From a virus, in the IMG/VR virus record IMGVR_UViG_3300045988_112808: a stretch of 64,000 nt of DNA; one strand, given 5' to 3'. The notes under the pieces were generated by a model. That model did no database searches. It was not told the DNA's origin and saw nothing but the letters and a program-made list of their open reading frames with translations. The position numbers were made by a program, and so were the translations under genes. Below are positions 9,349 through 26,289 of the stretch, one piece after another. Each line of letters starts with the position of its first letter. The stretch's first letter is position 1.

Positions 9349-9431
9349 AAGGCATACATTTTCCTACATTTGTGTGTTCTTTAGTTTTTAGATTTAAGTT
9401 TTTCATGGTATTAGTTTAGATTAGTGTAGAT

Positions 9432-9466
9432 CAGGGCTCGCAGTGATGCGGGCCCTGGTTTGATTT
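9432..9466 (+). terminator. rho-independent terminator candidate
   Basis: CAGGGC-T-CGC ... GCG-G-GCCCTG stem (9432-9457) followed by GTTTGATTT. Confidence 0.55.
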
Positions 9467-12246: not shown

Positions 12247-12552
12247 ATGTGTGATAAGGAAATTGTTGTATGCGCAGCTATATGGGTTCAAGATCACAAG
12301 AACAAGCCTCACGGTCCAGTAAACATACCATCCGGAACCGTATTTTGTGGATTGAGACATTGTTCCATAATATCTCAACTTGCGGCATACGGTATAGCCC
12401 ATAAAAACCGCAGTGTTCAAGGATTTTTGACGAGCAAGAACCGGTTTTTAACAAGAGAGGAAGCATCTGAACTTGTTAAGAGCAATAATCAGGAAATGGT
12501 AGTAGATAGGAGTGCTATTAGAGAACAATTGTATTCAGAAGATCTATATTAA
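12247..12552 (+). CDS. hypothetical protein (101 aa)
   Basis: ORF-track ORF, 3 nt after the previous stop. The motif GLRHCSII...QGFLTSKNRFLTREEA recurs in small phage proteins by recollection only. Confidence 0.65.
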   Translation: MCDKEIVVCAAIWVQDHKNKPHGPVNIPSGTVFCGLRHCSIISQLAAYGIAHKNRSVQGFLTSKNRFLTREEASELVKSNNQEMVVDRSAIREQLYSEDLY

Positions 12553-13913: not shown

Positions 13914-16900
13914 ATGACATCAGCGTGTATTATTAAAAGAGATAATAAAAAGAAAGTTGTTTCTGTCTCTACCATATCAGGGGACAGGTCTATGTTATTT
14001 GATAAAATAGCATCTATTCCTCTTATGGAGAACAGGGAACGGGCCACTACTGTTTTTAAAACCGTATTTTCTAATAAGTTCTTAAAGGCTTTTGGCGACT
14101 GGAGAAAGAGAGTGCCTATCAACAAACCGGCTTATAATAAGGTAAAATCCAACATCGATCTTATTCCGGAAGCCTATAGAGAAAGGGTGTTGGATAAGGC
14201 TTCTAAGATGAGTAATCCTGTTCTTGTGTCAAAATCAGATGTACCTTATGAAATCCAAGAATCGGGCTTTGGATTCTACAGCCAAAATCTGGGTGATAAT
14301 ATTATGTTGGTGGATGCTATGGTCCCGTCAAGTATTTCCGTACCGGAAGGACCGGGAATAGACGCCGGGCAGTATCTACAAGATGCTATATCTTCGGACT
14401 TCACTCCCGTATCTATGGTACAGGATAAGGGTGTTAATTATATGGTTATAAAAGATGGTCTTAAGATATTTAGCCCAGAGGAGTTACCAGAAACAGATTC
14501 TAATCCTGTGGGTGTAACGTATCAGACCGGAGAGCCTCGTTTGTTTTTCATGAACGATCGTAGTCAATTATTTGAAGATTACGGAGAAGCTCTTCGCTCT
14601 GGCGGGAATGATATTAGAATAGGGTTCTTATCAGGCACCGTTCAAGAATCTACCGTGGATGGCGTGGAAGACATTACTTACAAAGCTGGAAAGTATGTTC
14701 TTAATAATCCCAAGTCTTTTATACCGGTCATGACCGCGTCTGCTTCTACTTCTTTATCAACAAAAGGTGGTATAATTAACTACCTTATAAAGAAAGGTCT
14801 TTTGTCCGGATCTAAGATATTCGATCCTGAAACAAGAAGCTATTATCTTACAGGAGAAGGACATACAGGACAAATTAGACTTTTCAATTCAGCCTTATCC
14901 TACACCGAGCTCCGTAATCATTTTGGTTCCGATGTTTCCATGAACGACCAAGGTATGATAACCATAAGCTCGTTGGATAATAGTAAGGTAACTATGAGGC
15001 TCGCCACCGGAGGAACGGAAAGGGTTAGCAAAGAGCAGATAAAGAACGATCTTAAGTCAGGAAGATACAATGAATTGGACGCCAAGTACGATCATTTTGA
15101 TGCGCTTGTAGTTTCATTCATATTAGAAGACAACGATCTTTATGCTGATACTAAAGCTAAGATCGTATCAGATTATAGCAGGCAGGAACGTGATCAACGA
15201 AATTCTATTGTCGAGATACTGAAAACTCTTGGCGTTAGTGTCATAGGTATGACCGACTATATAGAGAAGTACCAAACCAAATACGGGCATGAACCTTCTG
15301 CTAAGGCATTGGCGGATATTGCCAATAACGTAATAGCAGTTGGTGAAGATGCTACTTTATCTGATTTAGTAGAAGAAACAGCCCACTTCCTTGTAGAGGC
15401 ATACAGAGATCAGAATGCCGTTGAGGCTGTTCTGCAAGATGTAGAAGGTACGGAAGAGTGGAACCAGTATGCAGGTCAGTATTATAATACATACGGTAAG
15501 GTATATGAAGGAGCTGAGCTTGATAATGCTGTTAGGAGAGAAATTCTTGGAAAGATCCTCGCCATGGAGATGCAGACCGGCACAGCACAGGCGCCGGTAG
15601 AGCCCACCTCCTTCCTGGGGCGCGTCCGGCAGCTTCTCTCTGGAATCGTAAGCTGGCTTAAATCAGCTTTATCAACCCAAAGACAAGATTTGAATAACGT
15701 TATTAAAAACATTCGTGATCTTGCCATTACTGACATAGATAAAGGATTTGACACTTCTCTGTTAAAGGATAATGACTTTACATTATACTCCCTTTCTTCT
15801 ATGAACAAGAACAAGTTTCTTGAGTCTAAGATCAGATCACTAAGAAAAACATTAAGAGACTTACGTCAGATAAGCTCTGATAGGGCTGTAACTACGTCTA
15901 TGACCCTTGCTCAGCTTAAGACCATAGAAGATAAGATAAATAAGGTAGAGACCGAAATAGACAAGAATGAGATGGCGGCTGCCATGAACAGCATGATCTC
16001 CACAGCCGAAGCTCAGGTTAGATACTTAAGTAATGTGGTGAACACCATCCTTCATGGTGATACCAAAGACGGTAAGCTTCACTTCAATACCAATGATCGA
16101 AAGAACGTAGATATTATCAACAATCAGGTTCTTCCGATCATGAACGATCTTCGAGGATATATCCGTAACAGAAGTACCGAATTTGATGAACGTGAAAAGC
16201 AGGATTATACAAATAGGATCAATACCGTCATTGCCGACATCAATGGTATTCAGTCTGATATTAAATCAGTACAAGACCTTGATGAAAGTACGTTGCTTGA
16301 TAAGTTAATGAACGAACTTCATGTGCCGGCAGATAAGGTAAAGAGAGTAAAAGAATTTTTTGACAAGGTTCAACACGATGTTTCTTGGATAAGTAGGTGG
16401 TTTGGTATATTAGAGCATTCTTCCAGCCCGTTCAATAACGCTCTTGGAGCTATGATTGCCAAAGACAATTACAATGCGATGGTGAATGCCCAGCCCGCCA
16501 TATCCGACTTCCTGGCATATGCTAAAAAGCATGGTTTTAACAAATCTGAATTTGAAAAACTGCTTCAGAAAGTAGACGGCAAAACTTCCAATTACCTTCG
16601 TAGTGCTCTTGATATGGCTAAATACGATCGTAATAAGAAGCTGGCGCAGATGCGAGCGTTTGCGACTGCCATGAACATAGAGATATCAGAAGAAGAAATT
16701 GGTGATGTGGTTGACAATAACCGTAATTACGTATTTAAAAGAGAAGTAGTTGACAAGGACGGAAATACGGTTACTGAAAACGCTAAATTTAAACCATCGT
16801 CCGATAGGGTTAATACCGATATTTTTACCATCGAGCAGGAAAAGATCTATACGGAGCAGATGGAAAAGTGGGATGCTGAAAATTCAGAATTGGAATTTAG

Positions 16901-19900
16901 TGAAAGTTATGCCACAAGAATGGAATCCATATACAAAAAGGCTGAAGAAGAATTAGGACATCCGGTTTCTCAAACAACCAAAGAATACCTTAATGCCTTA
17001 TCCCGGCAAAAACGGATATTGAGGCAGCCTTTTATTGATAGCGGTGGTAATTTTGATGAGGTTGCCTACTATAAGAGTAGTAACTACGAAGAAGAAGGAC
17101 TGCTTCGTAAACAACGTAAGGAGGCAGCTTCGGAATACATATATGTAGGAACCAGGAGAGTGGAAAAAACCGGCGACCAACTTAAGATGGCCAAAGAAAT
17201 ACAAGCCATAAATGAAGTTTGGAGAAAAGAATCAAATAATGCCACTAATGCCGTATCAGAATCGTTTTTGCAAAAATTAAGAACGATTCAGAGCGAGTCT
17301 GGAGGAGAAGCTGCGCTGAAGACGCTTATGTTGGGGGGTCACCTGTCATTCAACGATCGGTTTTGGAATGACGTAGAATCGGAACAGTCGGCGCGTACCG
17401 AATCAAATAACAAGGCTTCGTATCTTAAAATGGCGCATGATATCATTAGTTCTACGACAAGTGATAGAGATGCGACTGACGTGGACTCGATTGTAAAAGA
17501 TATAGAAAAAAATAAGGCCATTATCAAGGAAATAATCGGAAACAATCGCGATGTGGCTGATATCGGAGAAATCAATGAAGCGACATTTACCTCATCTGAA
17601 AGAGATGCTTTTAGGGCCGCATCTGAAGCTATTGAAGCCGATTACGCTATTTTGATAGATTATGCTAAGATGGTGGGTCTTGAAGATATTGATAAGTACC
17701 TTACTAAAAGCAGTAAGGCTGAAAACGAAGTAAATCAGTCTTATTTAAGTGCTCTTGCTGACTCTAAGGAAATTGAATGGCAGTTTGCACAGCGTCATAC
17801 TACTGCCAAAAAAGCCAAAAGGATTCAGGCTCTTAGAGATAAGTTATTCATGGCTCAAGATAACAGGTATATGTTTACCGTCTCTGAAACCAACTACTTG
17901 TCAGAAAAATTGGGAATAGATAAAAAGCTAGATCGTAGAGATTTTAGGAATGCGGTTAGAGCTAAGATGTCTGACATATTTGGACACGATAACGGAGTAG
18001 CTGAAGTGAACGATATCGTTAATGAATTTGCCAGGAGCCAGGTCTTTTCGTACTATAAACGCATGGCGCCTACCGGATATGCGGCTATGATCGACAAAAT
18101 CGGTCGAGGTGAGATAGATGTGGCGCAGATGGTTAAGGACGTACAAAACGGTACATCCACCCAAGATTATGGCATGGACATATCGTACCTGTCTTTCGAT
18201 CCTGCAAGGGCATGGGTGGCTGAATCTGAAGCCGAAAATAGCGGCCGTAATCCTGATTATGTAAAAGATCATGGGTATGGTCATCGCATGCCTAAGAAAA
18301 GCCTGTATCGTGATGAATCATATTTCAACGACTTCGGCATTAAGTATGATGCTGATGGTAATGAGGTTGCTACTAAAAACATAGAGCAGTGGAATATGAT
18401 TCAAAAACTCAAGGAAATAAAAAGACAATCCCTTGATCTATACAAAGAGCAGAGCCCGAACCTGTATGCTATTCCACAGATATCCAAACAAGATATAGAA
18501 CGTATAGAAGGGTTAGGTATCAGCCTTAAAAGTACGGTCAGGAACTTCGTATCCGACTTATGTCTTGACCGCGTAGATGACTCCCTGTATGGTAAAACAC
18601 GTCAGGGTGAGGTATATGATCCGGAAGATAGGGTTCGGTCCATACCTAAATACTACATATATGAATTAGAGAACCAAGATGATGTATCTCACGATTTTGG
18701 CTACTCTTATTCGATGCTTATGATGCAGTCATCGTTATATAACGAAAAGCAGAAGTCTATAGAGCTTGCCCAAGGACTGGAGCAGATGTTACTGAATAAA
18801 CAATTTGAGGGTGGTAAGAAGGCTGAAGCAACCCAAGCATATCAGATGTTCAGGGACTTCTTCAACGATCATTATTATGGCATTAGGATGAACACCAAAA
18901 AACTTACGGTGAACATCGGAGGATATACGGTAGACCTTACAAGAATTATGATGGCTGTTGAAAGGTTTATGTCGGTCATGAACTTGGCACTGTCTCCGTT
19001 TGTGGCAGCTACCGGCGCCCTTACCGGCCATATCAACCTCATCATGGAATCTGCCGTAGGACAGTATATAAGCAAAGACTCCCTTAAATACGCATCGGCT
19101 GAGTTTTCACGTCTTGCGCCATCTTGTATAGCAGAAACCGGAGACATAGATAGGAAAAGCAAATTATATGTCATAGGTGAGAGAATGGGGATATTCAATA
19201 TCCGAAATCGTATGTATGGTGCCGGATACAATAGAGCGGCCAGGACCTTAATGCGTTCGCCTATGTATGCTTTTATGGAAATCCTGAACTACCCTCTTGA
19301 TCCGCAGGTTATGATTGCTACTATGGACAATGTTCGTTATTACAAAGGCCGGTTCTACACGTTCCAAGATTTCAAGATGGAAAAAGAACGTAATAAAGAA
19401 CAGAGTACCATAAAAAGAGAATGGAATGCATTAAAAGATCGTACTTTATGGAGTATGGTAGACGTCGTGGATGGGAAGGTGGTTGTAAAGCCAGGATCGG
19501 GTGTTACTGTTGAGGAAGTTGAAACCCAGATGGCTATAACCAGAAATCAAGTTCGTAGCTTGTCGCAGATATGTAACGGATCTTTGAATGAAGAAAACCG
19601 AACTGCCGCATCGCGCAACTGGATAGCCAGGTTCATGACCGCCCACCGAGGATGGTTGGTGCTGGCGGCTCAACGTCTGTGGAAAAGACGTGGCTTCAAT
19701 TTCCAGACAATGCAAGAAGAGGAAGGACTGTCAATTACGTTAAAGAATATGATAGCCAAAACATTTAGCTTAGCTTCCGAGTCTGGTATGAAAAACATCA
19801 TAGATGCCTGGAACGAAAATAAAGACAATATGAATGAGGTAGAGAAAACCAATATAAAACGTCTCAGTGTCTATGCCGGCACGTTCCTTATCATGCAAGC

Positions 19901-20327
19901 CGTATCCATGCTTCTTGCCGGATGGCGTGATGATGATGAAAACGAAGAAAGTTGGCTTACTCAATTTGGATCCTATGTCGGATTCAGAACCATAAACGAA
20001 ATAGCTTCACAGATGCCGTTTATTATGGAGCTTAACGTTGTAGATATCATTAACGACCCGTTTGTCATGGGGCGGAAGTTGAAGGATCTTACTGATCTTA
20101 GGAATTACTCACTTGATAAAGTAACATCCGGCACATACAAAGGAGAGTTTAAGTTATTTAGGCAACTCGCCAAACAGACGTTTATCAAACAATGGTATAA
20201 TATCAAGACGCCGGAAGACGTAGCGCGCGCCTATAATTGGTGGCAGCAGACAAACAACAAGTCAATGATGTTCTTCATCGGCGCTACTCCTGATTCGGAA
20301 GGAGACGATGACGTTAGTTACAAATAG
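13914..20327 (+). CDS. giant virion-associated/ejected-type protein (2137 aa), function unassigned
   Basis: Uninterrupted 6.4-kb ORF with its own promoter box and terminator. Its N-terminal module is shared with ORF 6673. Hydrophobic segments near the C-terminus (MNLALSPFVAATGALTGHINLI; YAGTFLIMQAVSMLLAGW) suggest membrane insertion. No DxDxD RNAP motif seen. Confidence 0.85.
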   Translation: MTSACIIKRDNKKKVVSVSTISGDRSMLFDKIASIPLMENRERATTVFKTVFSNKFLKAFGDWRKRVPINKPAYNKVKSNIDLIPEAYRERVLDKASKMSNPVLVSKSDVPYEIQESGFGFYSQNLGDNIMLVDAMVPSSISVPEGPGIDAGQYLQDAISSDFTPVSMVQDKGVNYMVIKDGLKIFSPEELPETDSNPVGVTYQTGEPRLFFMNDRSQLFEDYGEALRSGGNDIRIGFLSGTVQESTVDGVEDITYKAGKYVLNNPKSFIPVMTASASTSLSTKGGIINYLIKKGLLSGSKIFDPETRSYYLTGEGHTGQIRLFNSALSYTELRNHFGSDVSMNDQGMITISSLDNSKVTMRLATGGTERVSKEQIKNDLKSGRYNELDAKYDHFDALVVSFILEDNDLYADTKAKIVSDYSRQERDQRNSIVEILKTLGVSVIGMTDYIEKYQTKYGHEPSAKALADIANNVIAVGEDATLSDLVEETAHFLVEAYRDQNAVEAVLQDVEGTEEWNQYAGQYYNTYGKVYEGAELDNAVRREILGKILAMEMQTGTAQAPVEPTSFLGRVRQLLSGIVSWLKSALSTQRQDLNNVIKNIRDLAITDIDKGFDTSLLKDNDFTLYSLSSMNKNKFLESKIRSLRKTLRDLRQISSDRAVTTSMTLAQLKTIEDKINKVETEIDKNEMAAAMNSMISTAEAQVRYLSNVVNTILHGDTKDGKLHFNTNDRKNVDIINNQVLPIMNDLRGYIRNRSTEFDEREKQDYTNRINTVIADINGIQSDIKSVQDLDESTLLDKLMNELHVPADKVKRVKEFFDKVQHDVSWISRWFGILEHSSSPFNNALGAMIAKDNYNAMVNAQPAISDFLAYAKKHGFNKSEFEKLLQKVDGKTSNYLRSALDMAKYDRNKKLAQMRAFATAMNIEISEEEIGDVVDNNRNYVFKREVVDKDGNTVTENAKFKPSSDRVNTDIFTIEQEKIYTEQMEKWDAENSELEFSESYATRMESIYKKAEEELGHPVSQTTKEYLNALSRQKRILRQPFIDSGGNFDEVAYYKSSNYEEEGLLRKQRKEAASEYIYVGTRRVEKTGDQLKMAKEIQAINEVWRKESNNATNAVSESFLQKLRTIQSESGGEAALKTLMLGGHLSFNDRFWNDVESEQSARTESNNKASYLKMAHDIISSTTSDRDATDVDSIVKDIEKNKAIIKEIIGNNRDVADIGEINEATFTSSERDAFRAASEAIEADYAILIDYAKMVGLEDIDKYLTKSSKAENEVNQSYLSALADSKEIEWQFAQRHTTAKKAKRIQALRDKLFMAQDNRYMFTVSETNYLSEKLGIDKKLDRRDFRNAVRAKMSDIFGHDNGVAEVNDIVNEFARSQVFSYYKRMAPTGYAAMIDKIGRGEIDVAQMVKDVQNGTSTQDYGMDISYLSFDPARAWVAESEAENSGRNPDYVKDHGYGHRMPKKSLYRDESYFNDFGIKYDADGNEVATKNIEQWNMIQKLKEIKRQSLDLYKEQSPNLYAIPQISKQDIERIEGLGISLKSTVRNFVSDLCLDRVDDSLYGKTRQGEVYDPEDRVRSIPKYYIYELENQDDVSHDFGYSYSMLMMQSSLYNEKQKSIELAQGLEQMLLNKQFEGGKKAEATQAYQMFRDFFNDHYYGIRMNTKKLTVNIGGYTVDLTRIMMAVERFMSVMNLALSPFVAATGALTGHINLIMESAVGQYISKDSLKYASAEFSRLAPSCIAETGDIDRKSKLYVIGERMGIFNIRNRMYGAGYNRAARTLMRSPMYAFMEILNYPLDPQVMIATMDNVRYYKGRFYTFQDFKMEKERNKEQSTIKREWNALKDRTLWSMVDVVDGKVVVKPGSGVTVEEVETQMAITRNQVRSLSQICNGSLNEENRTAASRNWIARFMTAHRGWLVLAAQRLWKRRGFNFQTMQEEEGLSITLKNMIAKTFSLASESGMKNIIDAWNENKDNMNEVEKTNIKRLSVYAGTFLIMQAVSMLLAGWRDDDENEESWLTQFGSYVGFRTINEIASQMPFIMELNVVDIINDPFVMGRKLKDLTDLRNYSLDKVTSGTYKGEFKLFRQLAKQTFIKQWYNIKTPEDVARAYNWWQQTNNKSMMFFIGATPDSEGDDDVSYK

Positions 20328-22479: not shown

Positions 22480-22683
22480 ATTGCTTTACTTTTACGATTT
22501 TAATAGAATCACCAATATTGTATTCTCCTTGGTATCCAACGAATTTTATAATTCTATTATTTTTAAATATTGAAACTCTTTCGTCTTCACCATAATATAT
22601 CACACGTCCACCATCTAAAGGAAGTAGATCATATATAACCCATCCTTCATTAACCTGATCATCAATAAAATAAAATACCTCAT
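22469..22683 (-). pseudogene. small gene with an apparent 1-nt frame break near its start
   Basis: ATG 22683 opens a 22-codon frame. The -1 frame carries a 66-codon protein-like ORF with no start (..DDQVNEGWVIYDLLPLDGGRVIYYGEDERV..) that ends in an overlap with the ATG of the next gene. The frames meet at two T4 runs. Confidence 0.4.
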
Positions 22684-22690
22684 ATTATTT

Positions 22691-22882
22691 TCAACATAAA
22701 AATTTGTAACCTGGTTTTACTGCCTCTGCTTCTTCTTTTGTATCAAACATTAAGGTAGTGACAGCTCCTATGCCTTCACAAACGTAAGATACTTTTACCC
22801 ACCACCTGAAAATTCCCGATCCGTAATCATCATAATACGGCTCGGAAAGGACCTCTTCTACGTACCCATCTAAGTAATTCAT
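22691..22882 (-). CDS. hypothetical protein (63 aa)
   Basis: ATGA overlap with the upstream stop; AAGGAGG lies 7 nt upstream of the ATG. Confidence 0.6.
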   Translation of the reverse strand: MNYLDGYVEEVLSEPYYDDYGSGIFRWWVKVSYVCEGIGAVTTLMFDTKEEAEAVKPGYKFLC

Positions 22883-23616
22883 GATCGCTCCTCCTTATTT
22901 TCAGATTCTGCCTCTTCGAGTATGCTGATCACCTTATCAACAATATCCGAATCAGACATTTTCTCAATAAAAACATCCATTGCCTTAGTTATGTCATTGG
23001 CTTCTTTTTCTTCAAGAGCAATCTCTCCACCGGTAATAGCATCAGATAATGATGTAGATAAGTGTCTTATCTTATCAATGCTCATAAACGTAAATGGATT
23101 ACCACCCCAGCCTCCACCCATTTCTTTCATAATCTGATATCCACCTGAAATAAGTCTGCCTGATGTCGTGGCCAAGGAGGATACGATTAGGGACAGCACC
23201 GCCACCTCCGTCCGCTCCTCCGACACGCCCTTCGACCACACGGCTGCCCTTATAGCGCCGGCCAGGTCGTCTATGTATGGCATGAGGCAATCTTCCATCG
23301 CTTGTGTTATATCAGCTATAACCTCACTACGCTCTTTATTTATGTAGTAGATAGAAGCATTGTACCTCTTTATCTCTTTGTCCATGTCATTTAAAAGACG
23401 CTTGATATTGTGCTTATACATAGGACTGGTTTTAATTACTTCCTTTAGCTTAAGAATGTAATTATAAGCCTGGTCGTTTACAAACAACGTCATGGTCTCA
23501 ACCGTTGAATGAAGCGTGTTAAGACTGTTAAGAATCTTATCGAAATTGTTTATCAAATAAGCTCTTATGGCTTTTGCTGCGTAGTTAATGTTATTAAAAT
23601 TATTCATTTTATTCAT
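22879..23616 (-). CDS. hypothetical protein (245 aa from the ATG at 23616)
   Basis: The ORF-track start is TTG 23625; the first ATG is at 23616. Contains a GC3-rich island at about 23165-23270. Lies immediately downstream of tnpB. Confidence 0.7.
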   Translation of the reverse strand: MNKMNNFNNINYAAKAIRAYLINNFDKILNSLNTLHSTVETMTLFVNDQAYNYILKLKEVIKTSPMYKHNIKRLLNDMDKEIKRYNASIYYINKERSEVIADITQAMEDCLMPYIDDLAGAIRAAVWSKGVSEERTEVAVLSLIVSSLATTSGRLISGGYQIMKEMGGGWGGNPFTFMSIDKIRHLSTSLSDAITGGEIALEEKEANDITKAMDVFIEKMSDSDIVDKVISILEEAESENKEERS

Positions 23617-23632
23617 TAGATTCAACCTTATA

Positions 23633-24820
23633 TCACAAAATATTTATTCTAACCGGATTAAACACAAATCCACTATCGATTATCTTTCCAATGAAAGAAT
23701 CACCGATTACTTTTCTTGCTATTCCAATTGCTCCATTAATATCTGCATTGATCAGCTTCCCAATAGAACTTTGAAACAATCCGCGTTTCTTCCTTCTACC
23801 TAAGTAGGATTCTTGTTTCTTTAGAGGTTCAAAAGCAAGATGGTCAATCTTTGATGTGTAAGATTCCTCATGAGTAATTACCTCTATCCCTAAAAGATTT
23901 GCTTTGTAAACAATCTTATCAATCAATTTAGAATGAGGAATAGAAACAAAATGTTGGTTATTCCTTTTACCGATATTTATCTCGTTTTTCCATTCTTTGT
24001 TTAATCCAATGATGATTGTTCCTATATTGTTAGATTTACAAAAGTCTACAATGTATCTACTGATTTTATGCAATTTGTCTTCTATCCAACAATTTCTAAA
24101 CAAAGTAATTTTTCTTATTCTATTTGAAGTTCCCTTATTACCAACAAAAGACATCAACTTAGCTTTCTTCTTATTGTACCACTGATTTACTGATTTCATA
24201 ACCCGTCCGTTTATAATGAAAGAATTAACTACATTACTAATACATGAACATAAATTATTCAATCCTAAATCAATCGAAAGAAAATTGTCTTTGTTTAAAC
24301 CAAGATCAGTTTCCTTTCTTTCATAAACTACCTCTACTACATAACATGTAGCTTGAGGGATTATTCTAACTTGTTTTAGTTTGTCTTTCTTTACATTTGT
24401 TTTGATAGGTTTGATTATATCTTTAACAAAATAAATACAATTATCACCCTTTACCCTACAATTGCAGTTGGTGAAAACAACCATGTTTTGTTTCTTACCT
24501 TGTTTGTATGATGGAAGGTGAGGTCTATGATTTCCGTATTTAGAAGGATTCTTTTCAAAATCCTTCTTGAGTTTTATCCAGGATTTTATGTTTTTAAATA
24601 CCTGTTTAATCACCTGTTGGGATACATGATTAGGTAAATTCCTGAAATCGAATTGGTTTTCTTTGCAAAGTTTGTTTGATAAATCAAATTCCTTTAAATA
24701 GTTACCTGAAAAGATTCCTTGACGAATGTTGTAAAGAACATAATTATATAACAAGCCGGATTTGAAGCAAATATCCTCAAACCGGTTGTCTTTAACTATA
24801 TGCCTTTCAACTAATCTCAT
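23633..24820 (-). CDS. tnpB: TnpB-like RNA-guided endonuclease (IS200/IS605 OrfB family), zinc-finger-less subtype
   Basis: 395 aa. RuvC-like triad: D in LSIDLGLNN, E in HEESYTSK, D in INADINGAIGIARK. Cys-free linker SKIDHLAFEP..YLGRRKKRGLFQS between RuvC-II and RuvC-III. N-terminal half is typical of OrfB. Confidence 0.85.
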   Translation of the reverse strand: MRLVERHIVKDNRFEDICFKSGLLYNYVLYNIRQGIFSGNYLKEFDLSNKLCKENQFDFRNLPNHVSQQVIKQVFKNIKSWIKLKKDFEKNPSKYGNHRPHLPSYKQGKKQNMVVFTNCNCRVKGDNCIYFVKDIIKPIKTNVKKDKLKQVRIIPQATCYVVEVVYERKETDLGLNKDNFLSIDLGLNNLCSCISNVVNSFIINGRVMKSVNQWYNKKKAKLMSFVGNKGTSNRIRKITLFRNCWIEDKLHKISRYIVDFCKSNNIGTIIIGLNKEWKNEINIGKRNNQHFVSIPHSKLIDKIVYKANLLGIEVITHEESYTSKIDHLAFEPLKKQESYLGRRKKRGLFQSSIGKLINADINGAIGIARKVIGDSFIGKIIDSGFVFNPVRINIL

Positions 24821-24837
24821 TTGAATGATTTATATCG

Positions 24838-24869
24838 TAAATGTAATCGTTATTTGTAAAATAATCAAA
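24838..24869 (-). promoter_or_regulatory. near-consensus Bacteroidota-type promoter upstream of tnpB (TTTG-N20-TAcaTTTA)
   Basis: The minus strand reads TTTG (24869-24866), then 20 nt, then TACATTTA (24845-24838). ATG at 24820. Confidence 0.4.
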
Positions 24870-24873
24870 TTAT

Positions 24874-25416
24874 TCAATCATCGCATTCAAATTTTAGATT
24901 TTCAAGTTCGTGTATTTGTAACTTAAGAGACTTAATTAAATTCGTTCTCTGTTCCTCTGCATGTTTTAAAGCCTCTTCCTTGCTTTCAAAAGCACAATCC
25001 CCTATCTGATAAGGGGTGTAACGACCAGGAGTGTCGGCTAATAAAAGACCACCACAATCTTCTATTCTGGCTTTTACCTTTCTTATTTTCCCATCTTTTA
25101 GACACATGTCTGTAACCCATACGAATTTACCATATAATTTATCATACTCTTCTAATCTCTCTTCTTGCAATTCATACCATTTCGGCTTAGGAAATCTTAA
25201 TGTGAATTTAACCTCAGTATCTTTTTCTAAGACATTAATATCGTATGCTTCCGGCCACAGCTCTTTTATGCTGTCTTCGTCTTCGGCATACGCTACAAGT
25301 ATGAATGAATCATCGGATTCACCACTACACCAATATGGATATTTTATAGGCCATTTGACTGGACGGTAGTCGTTACCGCAGTCGGATTTTTTAATGTAAA
25401 ATCTTGCTCTAATCAT
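24874..25416 (-). CDS. hypothetical protein (180 aa)
   Basis: ORF-track ORF; 7-nt gap to the upstream gene. Confidence 0.7.
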   Translation of the reverse strand: MIRARFYIKKSDCGNDYRPVKWPIKYPYWCSGESDDSFILVAYAEDEDSIKELWPEAYDINVLEKDTEVKFTLRFPKPKWYELQEERLEEYDKLYGKFVWVTDMCLKDGKIRKVKARIEDCGGLLLADTPGRYTPYQIGDCAFESKEEALKHAEEQRTNLIKSLKLQIHELENLKFECDD

Positions 25417-25423
25417 ATCGTTA

Positions 25424-25735
25424 TTAATCTAATAATTTTTCTATTTTAATTGATTTTGATGATAGATACATATTCCACGTTCCTCTGCCTCTATCACCTT
25501 TTTCGTTTTGTTTTTGGATTGTCAAGTACAGATCTCCGTCTTCACATACTTCAACTTTTTTCAAGAAGCCTATCATTTCATCTCCTGCTTCGTGTAAAAT
25601 ACGGATCTTATCTCCTTCTTTTAACCCATAATTGGAATCAAAATATTCTTTTTTGATTCTATCAATATTGTCTTTATGGTTTTTTATAGCATAAAGCTCT
25701 TTTCTTAATAAATAATTTAGTTGTTCTATTGTCAT
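25424..25735 (-). CDS. hypothetical protein (103 aa)
   Basis: ATGA-type overlap with the upstream gene (25732-25735). Confidence 0.65.
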   Translation of the reverse strand: MTIEQLNYLLRKELYAIKNHKDNIDRIKKEYFDSNYGLKEGDKIRILHEAGDEMIGFLKKVEVCEDGDLYLTIQKQNEKGDRGRGTWNMYLSSKSIKIEKLLD

Positions 25736-26289
25736 TTCTTTTCCTCCTTATTTAATGGCATTAACCCTTTTCCGTGCTTGTCATACCACAGCATAGCTAT
25801 GCAGTTCCATGCACATTGTGCAAGATGAAAACATCCTGTATCGGAATCCACTCTTTCCCCTTTCATGTATTCCATTAGGTGTCGAAACATCGCAGCACGG
25901 TACCGTTCAATGCCATTGTCAAGATTCTGCCAAGTATTAGGACCGTACTTTTTGGCTCCGGCATGATAGACTTTTACAATGTCCTCAATTTCTTCCATCG
26001 GAAGCAAATCCCATCGTAGTTTATCGTCAATGATGTCATTTTTCACCGATTTGTTTTCTCTGGATACTTTGACAGGAATAATACCCATAATGTCCGTTCC
26101 TACGATAAACGTCTCTCCATTGCAACAAACCTCCGCATATTCATCATCTACCTCTATGTCTGATACTGCCTCCACTATAGCTCCTCTGGCTATTTCTAAT
26201 TCGGAACTGATTACATCACTTTCCAACATGCGAAAAATAGATCCTTTTGGATAAAGGATGTTTTTAGTATTATTGTCCATCTTTTCCAT
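25732..26289 (-). CDS. protein with a MazG-like / DUF5664-type (dATP/dGTP pyrophosphohydrolase N-terminal-like) domain
   Basis: The C-terminal half LRWDLLP...IVKVYHAGAKKYGPNTWQNL..GIERYRAAMFRHL...DSDTGCFHLAQCAWNCIAM fits the K-Y-G..N-W / R-H / D..G..H-L-A pattern recalled for that family. Confidence 0.45.
   Translation of the reverse strand: MEKMDNNTKNILYPKGSIFRMLESDVISSELEIARGAIVEAVSDIEVDDEYAEVCCNGETFIVGTDIMGIIPVKVSRENKSVKNDIIDDKLRWDLLPMEEIEDIVKVYHAGAKKYGPNTWQNLDNGIERYRAAMFRHLMEYMKGERVDSDTGCFHLAQCAWNCIAMLWYDKHGKGLMPLNKEEKK

Follow-up and report, generated by a model that had tools for sequence, protein, structure and literature searches.

How a nuclease gene can persist in a phage genome with almost no room between its genes is the question raised by a 395-aa open reading frame (ORF) on the minus strand of a 64,000-nt stretch of viral DNA (the window; IMG/VR virus record IMGVR_UViG_3300045988_112808). 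The ORF is a tnpB gene (23633..24820, minus strand) that lies between two phage genes and encodes an intact RuvC triad (D184/E319/D360) with an NADxN-type motif and no C4 zinc finger. TnpB nucleases with their omega-RNAs are the ancestors of Cas12 and act as selfish homing systems in bacteria. To our knowledge, the persistence of TnpB in lytic-style phage genomes with almost no non-coding space has not been described. A first-pass annotation of the window had described the gene as a solo TnpB with almost no flanks and had offered two readings, a homing drive that cuts sibling phages lacking the insertion or a domesticated phage nuclease. From the comparisons reported below, the locus is probably a non-autonomous insertion of the IS607 family that has lost its tnpA, keeps an active-looking tnpB, and acts as a homing element.

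Boundaries, ends and empty sites

The region was compared with crAssE-Sib (OR575929.1, L001), an Epsilon crAss-like phage (PMC11054128) that is about 94% identical to the region studied. The window aligned with crAssE-Sib at 22660-23589 and 24872-25416, and the sequence between had no counterpart. In crAssE-Sib, the homologues of the two flanking genes (L001 4618-5160 and 3912-4625) share 8 nt (ATGATTAA), with nothing between them, which makes this an empty site. In gene orientation, with the junctions marked by a caret, the empty site reads ...GAATACGATGAT^TAATTACGCGGCAAAAGCC, and the occupied site in the window reads ...GAATGCGATGAT^TGAATAATTTG...tnpB...AATTTTAATAACAT^TAACTACGCAGCAAAAGCC. 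The two reading frames of the empty site are GAT GAT TAA and, overlapping it, ATG ATT AAT TAC GCG. A further copy in an unrelated context (MT835500.1, L002) remained similar exactly as far as ...AATAACAT and diverged beyond. Because this similarity stops there, the right boundary was placed at window position 23588, and it was confirmed by the family set, 80 IMG/VR loci obtained from a scan (TnpB 69-99% identical, mostly on 80-158-kb gut-phage contigs). The crAssE-Sib comparison delimited a whole inserted element of 1,289 bp (left end, tnpB, and right end) at 23588..24876 on the minus strand, which, judged by its sequence, is a non-autonomous, tnpA-less derivative of the IS607 family.

The insertion at this site is a presence/absence polymorphism and not a fixed gene. 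Empty alleles were found in at least 117 IMG/VR contigs, and about 50 stretches, some of them overlapping, showed the right end joined to the window flank. Aligning related phages, which the first-pass annotation had proposed as a way of finding the empty site and the ends, gave both, with exact boundaries, in crAssE-Sib and in these contigs. Neither a second copy nor a solo end was found within the window, where the motif AATTTTAATAAC occurs once.

The left end comprises 56 nt (24821..24876, minus strand). Its first three bases, TGA (24876-24874), form the stop codon of the upstream gene at 24874-25416 and take the place of the native TAA stop; 53 nt (24821-24873) separate this stop from the tnpB ATG. 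Promoter-like motifs, TTTG (24869-24866) and, after N20, TACATTTA (24845-24838), lie within this stretch. Bacteroidetes-like -33/-7 motifs are kept in the left ends, about 55 nt long, of independent insertions, and the left end is predicted to carry a Bacteroidetes-type promoter. The right end, defined by comparison with MT835500.1 and the family, consists of the 45 nt after the tnpB stop (23588..23632, minus strand) and finishes with ...AATTTTAATAACAT. In-frame starts occur 8-17 nt past the tnpB stop (TTG at 23625, ATG at 23616), and the in-frame ATGs at 23616 and 23607 now start the downstream phage gene (22879..23616, minus strand), which reads ATG AAT AAA ATG AAT AAT TTT AAT AAC AT^T AAC TAC GCA from the right end into the gene. 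By comparison of this ORF with crAssE-Sib, the N-terminus has changed from the native M-INYAAKA... to MNKMNNFNN-INYAAKA..., and the orphaned native ATG (24879..24881, minus strand) now lies within the last codons of the upstream gene. The two ends are asymmetric and share a direct GAATAATTT motif, and in the AT subgroup only the dinucleotide AT is common to both junctions. Reading the sequence bore out the spacings (53 nt upstream, 8-17 nt to the next start) and the TTTG-N20-TACATTTA arrangement given in the first-pass annotation. Its remark on almost no flanks was correct for the small spacings, but the flanks are not missing; transposon ends are present and are overlapped by the neighbouring ORFs.

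TnpB and the predicted omega-RNA

The ORF matched the NCBIfam family NF040570 ('guided_TnpB', RNA-guided endonuclease TnpB family) with 156.6 bits over residues 18-370 (cut-off 100), Pfam OrfB_IS605 (PF01385) with 65.9 bits (cut-off 30.5), and Pfam Cas12f1-like TNB (PF07282) with 32.7 bits (cut-off 26.3); in PHROGs it matched phrog_506, 'transposase', at 1e-36. The assignment to the TnpB/OrfB family made from the letters alone is upheld by these curated profile scores. Window TnpB was then aligned with five relatives, down to 44% identity, which included proteins from a Bacteroides uniformis phage, a second TnpB of crAssE-Sib, and the phage-borne IS607 TnpB of Helicobacter pylori. The residues D184 (SIDLGLNN), E319 (HEESYTSK), and D360 (NADINGA) were invariant in this six-sequence alignment, so the RuvC-like triad is complete, as had been claimed, with no degraded catalytic residues among the aligned relatives. 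A TldR, that is, a nuclease-dead TnpB-like repressor, was considered and excluded since the triad is intact and invariant. With NADxN and not DRDxN as its RuvC-III motif, window TnpB bears the mark of the 'derived' TnpB clade (PMC10691335).

When the six sequences were used as a profile, the triad motifs of the window protein aligned with the RuvC motifs of the Cas12f chains 8J12 and 7WJU, and the CxxC pairs of solved Cas12f chains sat opposite Cys-free stretches. Zinc-finger cysteines of the C4 type (CxxC...CxxC) were present in none of the six aligned TnpBs, the H. pylori IS607 TnpB included; the Cys-free linker noticed in the window is a loss common to the whole clade. Such loss has been recorded in some large TnpB branches, and the zinc finger is a typical rather than an obligatory feature of TnpB (PMC10691335). 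Against the PDB, a single-sequence phmmer search with window TnpB returned just one weak partial match, to Cas12f, and the six-sequence profile reached Cas12f chains and did not reach the ISDra2 or ISFba1 TnpB at E<0.001. A protein search returned more than 6,800 TnpB relatives at E<=1e-10, of which the top 120 were all at least 78% identical to the window protein. The tnpB ORF was intact in 78 of the 80 family loci and disrupted in the other two.

The final 240 nt up to the right-end boundary were aligned for 31 family members and analysed with RNAalifold and by pair counts. A scaffold core of an omega-RNA was predicted at 23588..23706 (minus strand), with helices at 23706-23676 (two stacked stems), at 23671-23655, and between 23653-23648 and 23620-23615, followed by an A/U-rich 3' tail that extends to the right-end boundary. 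Two weaker helices upstream may extend the modelled scaffold to about 23777. Over the six helices of the family alignment, 97.7% of the cells were paired with 9 compensated pairs, none of 500 shuffles equalled the observed value, and shifting the partner by 1-3 columns lowered pairing to 29-56%. Covariance model R1, which covers the 3' 138 nt and was built on the four 3'-proximal (core) helices, matched 33 of 83 distant relatives on the tnpB strand with E values down to 3e-8, in every case at the tnpB 3' end except for one weak match (E = 0.5). Over the last ~35 tnpB codons, synonymous differences between family members amounted to 0.18-0.26, down from about 0.3-0.45, as expected if an RNA structure within the ORF constrains them. 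An Rfam scan of 22500-26000 at E<=10 found no omega-RNA, RAGATH-18 RNA, or intron and gave two unrelated matches at chance level. The ORF-embedded RNA is predicted to represent a new omega-RNA family that has no Rfam entry and reaches into the IS607 elements of Helicobacter, cyanobacteria, and Asgard archaea. It had been proposed that the scaffold must lie inside the 3' end of tnpB and that a covariance scan there could reveal it. The scan did find a conserved structured RNA at this position, in the 31 members and in the 33 distant relatives; it does not lie wholly inside the gene, since the 45 nt past the stop are part of it. Separately, a second dip in synonymous differences (0.15-0.21, compared with about 0.3-0.45 elsewhere) was seen around RuvC-I at tnpB codons 181-210 (window ~24190-24280), and the 3' RNA gives no account of it.

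Family conservation ended sharply at 23588, beyond which the sequence was site-specific. The first non-conserved sequence past the right end (23568..23587, minus strand), TAACTACGCAGCAAAAGCCA, corresponds to codons 2-8 of the native downstream gene and is the predicted guide; by analogy with characterised TnpBs, its length would be about 16-20 nt. This agrees with the earlier suggestion that the guide would come from the 5' end of gene 22879-23616. The empty site of crAssE-Sib reads TGAT followed by TAATTACGCGGCAAAAGCCA, which has 2 mismatches to the predicted guide, and a perfect guide match was present in 20 of the 117 empty alleles listed (17%).

Insertion sites, start codons and transposase

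The 80 family loci represent about 24 distinct insertion sites, each located directly after ...(G/T)AT, and AT or GT forms the last two bases of the right end. Empty alleles were available for six sites, the window's own included, and all fit the pattern ...AT^element...(A/G)T^. The window itself is empty at ~9393 and ~12537, two sites that are used by two other family members. The left end starts with the consensus [G/A/T][G/A]T[T/G/C][G/T]AAT..., and the right end finishes with ...TTTTAATAAC(A/G)T. At about 15 independent sites where the left end could be recognised, the target flank was DGAT in the subgroup of at least 89% identity and WTAT in the ~70% subgroup. At the window site, the insertion flanks, together with empty sites that show the target DNA, point to 5'-TGAT-3' (24877..24880, minus strand) as the candidate target-adjacent motif (TAM) that TnpB would recognise. 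Its last two bases (AT) could alternatively serve as the crossover dinucleotide of a serine recombinase. The hexamer ATGRTT was also considered as a TAM and rejected: one site holds two different elements (L053 and L062) with different hexamers, and the empty sites likewise assign the last 3-4 hexamer bases to the left end, leaving as target a part that ends with AT.

In the 185,579 bacterial and archaeal species genomes scanned, the closest cellular relative of window TnpB was 48% identical, and relatives occurred in Helicobacter, cyanobacteria, Chloroflexota, and Asgard archaea; the scan thus brought to light no parent element carried by a host. Since no cellular relative exceeds 48% identity, the close family evolves inside phages.

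Several further observations were made at insertion sites. The intergenic empty allele at window ~9385-9400 reads TTTTTAGAT^TTAAGTTTTTC and is occupied in L021 and L042, and that at ~12525-12550 reads CAGAAGAT^CTATATTAAC and is occupied in L024-L028. In L050, L052, and L078, a deletion has removed ~20 nt from the start of the left end along with 14 target nt (CTTAAAAAGATATG, which the L053 empty allele has), and tnpB may now use an upstream phage promoter (TATCTTTGTACC). One 153-kb contig, IMGVR_UViG_3300045988_113423 (L027, L032), carries two family members at different sites, with TnpBs 89% and 85% identical to window TnpB. A GC-rich terminator-like hairpin (GATCAGGGCTCGCAGTGATGCGGGCCCTGG, then TTTG) at window ~9420-9460 recurs beside two family insertion sites, and in L018 it is duplicated on both sides of the element (~2830 and ~4230).

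The junction codon, formed by the last two right-end bases and the first flank base, opens an ORF of at least 60 codons at 17 of the ~24 sites, with ORF lengths of 60 to >984 codons. Of the AT dinucleotides in the window, taken as the random expectation, just 16.6% are followed by at least 60 in-frame sense codons (binomial P ~6e-9 for 17 of 24). The junction codon was ATG or GTG in 15 of the 17 cases and ATT in the other two, the window included, where in-frame ATGs of the right end supply the start. At three start-codon sites with empty alleles, the native ATG lies exactly at the junction and the insertion splits it as AT^G, after which the (A/G)T of the right end rebuilds ATG or GTG. The right end finishes with (A/G)T after an A/U-rich leader that contains ATGs in frame, and therefore an insertion after ...AT that falls on or beside a start codon regenerates the downstream start. 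Read in this way, the ends are 'polite' to translation: the left opens with stop codons, and the right provides this leader. Members of the ~70% subgroup have G directly after ...ACGT at 14 of 14 sites, which reflects either target specificity or the survival of start-codon insertions only.

The same arrangement was seen elsewhere. In the cultured Bacteroides phage C3_41T2LP (L125 3679-3699), the next gene starts 17 nt past the tnpB stop, at ...GCCAT^G, and in Helicobacter phage Pt11057A_1 (L126 3730-3772), the next ORF starts 6 nt past the tnpB stop, inside the right end predicted by R1; the neighbour's start is therefore borrowed from the right end beyond crAss-like phages too. As a separate observation, in L043 and L046-L049 a family member lies exactly at the start codon of a homologue of the 2137-aa ORF at 13914-20327, with the junction AATAACGT^G TCG AGT TGC GTA ATT AAA compared with ATG ACA TCA GCG TGT ATT ATT AAA in the window.

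A tblastn search with two IS607 TnpA proteins found no serine-recombinase tnpA in the window, and the earlier statement that no tnpA is present there holds for this type, no dedicated search having been made for a Y1-type TnpA. A phage contig with a 77% identical TnpB, L044 (IMGVR_UViG_3300045988_093114), carried directly upstream of tnpB a gene for a 194-aa TnpA with a helix-turn-helix (HTH) and a Resolvase domain. This apparently autonomous element (L044 2340-4231, in the order left end, TnpA at 2417-2998, TnpB, right end) has a left end built in the same way, and its junction reads AGAT^GGTACGAAAATTTG. Its TnpA has an N-terminal HTH (HTH_17), matches PF00239 at 6.8e-20, and is 43% identical to the H. 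pylori IS607 TnpA. The MT835500.1 copy retains a 19-aa tnpA remnant beside a broken tnpB, and an IS607 TnpA was found upstream of tnpB in 17 of 80 cellular relatives. Because the L044 relative carries a serine-recombinase tnpA of the IS607 type, the window copy is interpreted as a tnpA-deleted IS607 derivative. The window element, like IS607 elements, has no terminal inverted repeats and no target duplication beyond the crossover dinucleotide. On these sequence features, the classification can be refined to an IS607-type (serine recombinase) rather than an IS200/IS605 Y1-type element.

Proposed homing, rival explanations and related systems

If the element acts by homing, a tnpB transcript from the left-end promoter would read through the right end and on into the adjacent phage gene, and its 3' part (some 75-150 nt at the end of the ORF, together with the 45-nt right end) would fold into the omega-RNA scaffold, with the next ~16-20 nt acting as the guide. 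TnpB with this RNA would recognise 5'-TGAT followed by a guide match, a combination that exists solely in genomes without the insertion. The targets would be a co-infecting sibling phage or a copy whose element had been excised, and the occupied copy would template repair of the break, so that the element would be retained and would spread in the phage population. To reach new sites, the element would depend on rare autonomous copies, L044 being one example, as a source of IS607 TnpA in trans. Both TnpB homing and IS607 TnpB activity have been characterised in other systems (PMC8612924, PMC10055086, PMC11061315, PMC13565253).

Several points weigh against this explanation. Pairing in the distant relatives (94.3% of cells compared with 62.8% when shuffled, and 20 of 22 pairs compensated, in 33 loci) was counted on an alignment fitted to the model, which inflates it. 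The single-sequence fold was no more stable than shuffles (z = -1.3), and therefore comparative evidence alone was used for the RNA. The candidate TAM is short (3-4 nt) and was taken from insertion flanks alone. One complete tnpA was found among ~300 phage loci, which supports trans-mobilisation thinly. Published IS607 elements end in or insert at GG, with the TAMs AGGAG and GAGGG (PMC11061315, PMC13565253); the family uses AT and not GG, and its transposition chemistry may differ from the assumed model. Finally, the dominant guide was carried by 46 of 52 occupied alleles, and 83% of the 117 empty alleles have 1-2 mismatches to it within the TAM-proximal 10 nt; if the enzyme is sensitive to mismatches, homing into such alleles may be inefficient.

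The mismatches fall at target positions +4, +7, and +10 (window 23584, 23581, and 23578), which are consecutive synonymous third-codon positions in the TAM-proximal half of the predicted target (empty alleles L207-L3xx). Natural variants have T at +4, T at +7, or G at +10. Each position is at intermediate frequency among the 117 empty alleles, with diversity of 0.42-0.47 and five haplotypes, in a comparison whose retrieval is biased by the search pattern and in which lineage structure is uncontrolled. This pattern could reflect escape from homing, a lead only, given that the search pattern let only those three positions vary.

Domestication, in which a nuclease with a fixed guide would exclude competing phages or regulate the neighbouring gene, accounts for the missing IS607 tnpA in the window (tblastn), for the ORF and triad kept intact across many phages, and for a lineage that evolves inside phages with no cellular relative above 48% identity among 185,579 species; a regulatory side effect is also conceivable, given the overlap between the guide and a phage gene's translation start. 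However, most close relatives have no such gene at this locus (at least 117 empty alleles), the family occupies ~24 loci with conserved transposon ends and differing flanking 'guides', which is the signature of a mobile element, and L044 shows that an autonomous, tnpA-bearing copy exists. Any killing of competitors would be a by-product of the same cleavage. Domestication is accordingly judged unlikely, and of the two readings offered earlier, the mobile homing element is favoured by the empty alleles and the multiple sites. The loss of tnpA, the degraded MT835500.1 copy (broken ORF, tnpA remnant), and the two disrupted ORFs among the 80 loci would also suit a dead transposon fragment, carried passively with neither active nuclease nor guide RNA. 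Such an inert relic is very improbable, since the ORF is intact in 78 of the 80 loci, which span 69-99% identity, the triad is invariant, the RNA helices are maintained by compensatory changes, the stretch of the ORF overlapped by the RNA shows constraint at synonymous sites, and there have been multiple recent insertions, with, for example, 98-99% identical copies in many contigs.

The class of the element has a rival explanation as well. An IS200/IS605-type element moved by a Y1 (HUH) TnpA through 'peel and paste', with ...GAT as the left and ...CAT as the right cleavage site, would insert 3' of a short AT-ending motif with no real target duplication, as observed. Moreover, the right end resembles the target motif (DGAT and ACAT; WTAT and ACGT), which is the IS200/IS605 pattern, and a preference for AT-rich targets has been described for IS200/IS605 and not for IS607 (PMC13565253). 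Yet the sole autonomous member found among the ~300 phage loci has a serine recombinase, as do 17 cellular relatives, and the ends share the direct GAATAATTT motif with no obvious subterminal hairpins on reading, no formal hairpin analysis having been made. We therefore give the Y1 explanation very little weight and retain the IS607-derived homing element as the preferred one.

A more far-reaching interpretation, which we put forward tentatively and which is doubtful as a whole, joins these features in a phage-restricted, start-codon-targeting IS607/TnpB lineage with an end in three roles, a gene drive, and escape variants. The lineage would be specialised for gene-dense phage genomes through translation start sites. 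The ~45-nt segment would be at once a recombinase site, the 3' part of the scaffold, and the translation-initiation region of the downstream gene. The RNA-guided gene drive would operate between co-infecting phages, and the synonymous polymorphisms at +4/+7/+10 would be escape variants in an ongoing drive-resistance arms race.

IS607 systems with TnpB and an omega-RNA (also called right-element RNA, reRNA), such as H. pylori IS607 and ISFba1 (PMC11061315; PMC13565253), have an HTH+Resolvase TnpA followed by TnpB, like L044, and are alike in a ~390-aa TnpB, an intact RuvC domain, and a guide just outside the right end. The H. pylori TnpB is 44% identical to window TnpB, likewise has no zinc finger, and goes with the same set of 3' RNA helices. 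In contrast to these systems, the window copy has no tnpA, and its RNA is not RAGATH-18 and overlaps the ORF instead of lying wholly downstream; compared with a RAGATH-18 reRNA-guided TnpB, the window element has no RAGATH-18 match in Rfam and just 45 nt after the stop. The family ends with AT or GT and inserts after (G/T)AT rather than GG, its probable TAM is DGAT rather than AGGAG or GAGGG, and its lineage is confined to phages. ISDra2-type homing in IS200/IS605 (PMC8612924; PMC10055086) likewise combines a nuclease with a guide RNA derived from the right end and overlapping the tnpB 3' end, and likewise has its TAM 5' of the left end (TTGAT in ISDra2, putatively TGAT in the window). The logic of retaining and spreading the element by cutting the empty site would be shared, whereas the transposase class differs and window TnpB has NADxN rather than DRDxN and no zinc finger.

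IStrons, which combine IS605 or IS607 with a group I intron (PMC10690162), likewise limit harm to the host gene and often persist without tnpA. The window element differs in having no intron (56-nt left end, no intron match in Rfam), and harm is avoided by stop and start codons, not by splicing. The free-standing homing endonuclease genes Seg and Mob of T-even phages (PMC13565253) are also small, polymorphic nuclease genes between conserved phage genes that are expected to spread in co-infection by cutting the allele that lacks them; in the window, however, the target would be RNA-guided and set by the flank, and there are defined transposon ends movable by a recombinase. Homing between co-infecting phages has been discussed conceptually (PMC13565253). 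TnpB 'transposases' have been reported in Epsilon crAss-like phages, the same group as the window; just two such genes are listed, in some Epsilonunoviruses, and crAssE-Sib carries two unrelated TnpBs (PMC11054128). A TnpB with 45% identity was found at a different locus of crAssE-Sib. The paper on these phages (PMC11054128) gives no description of element ends, of a guide RNA, of empty sites, or of start-codon insertion, and in the literature searched we did not find a description of the element anatomy, the IS607 origin with an AT-type target, the ORF-embedded omega-RNA, or systematic insertions that regenerate start codons.

The family comprises compact nucleases of ~395 aa without a zinc finger and with a probably short, AT-type TAM. 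It illustrates one solution for gene-dense phages, an element stripped to a nuclease and a guide RNA with ends that supply codons. The family is abundant in human-gut crAss-like (Epsilon) phages and polymorphic between near-identical genomes, and this polymorphism makes it a natural test system for an RNA-guided gene drive in co-infection.

The genes on both sides of the element were also examined. The downstream gene (22879..23616) had no Pfam or PHROG match. The upstream gene (24874..25416, minus strand) encodes 180 aa with an unchanged C-terminus, is 98.5% identical to L001 4617-5160, and matches phrog_22725, whose function is unknown in PHROGs. In crAssE-Sib, a gene for a 375-aa DNA (cytosine-5)-methyltransferase (L001 5157-6284) separates the homologues of genes 24874-25416 and 25424-25735. 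Just 7 nt (25417-25423) stand at this position in the window, so that another presence/absence polymorphism lies one gene from the TnpB site.

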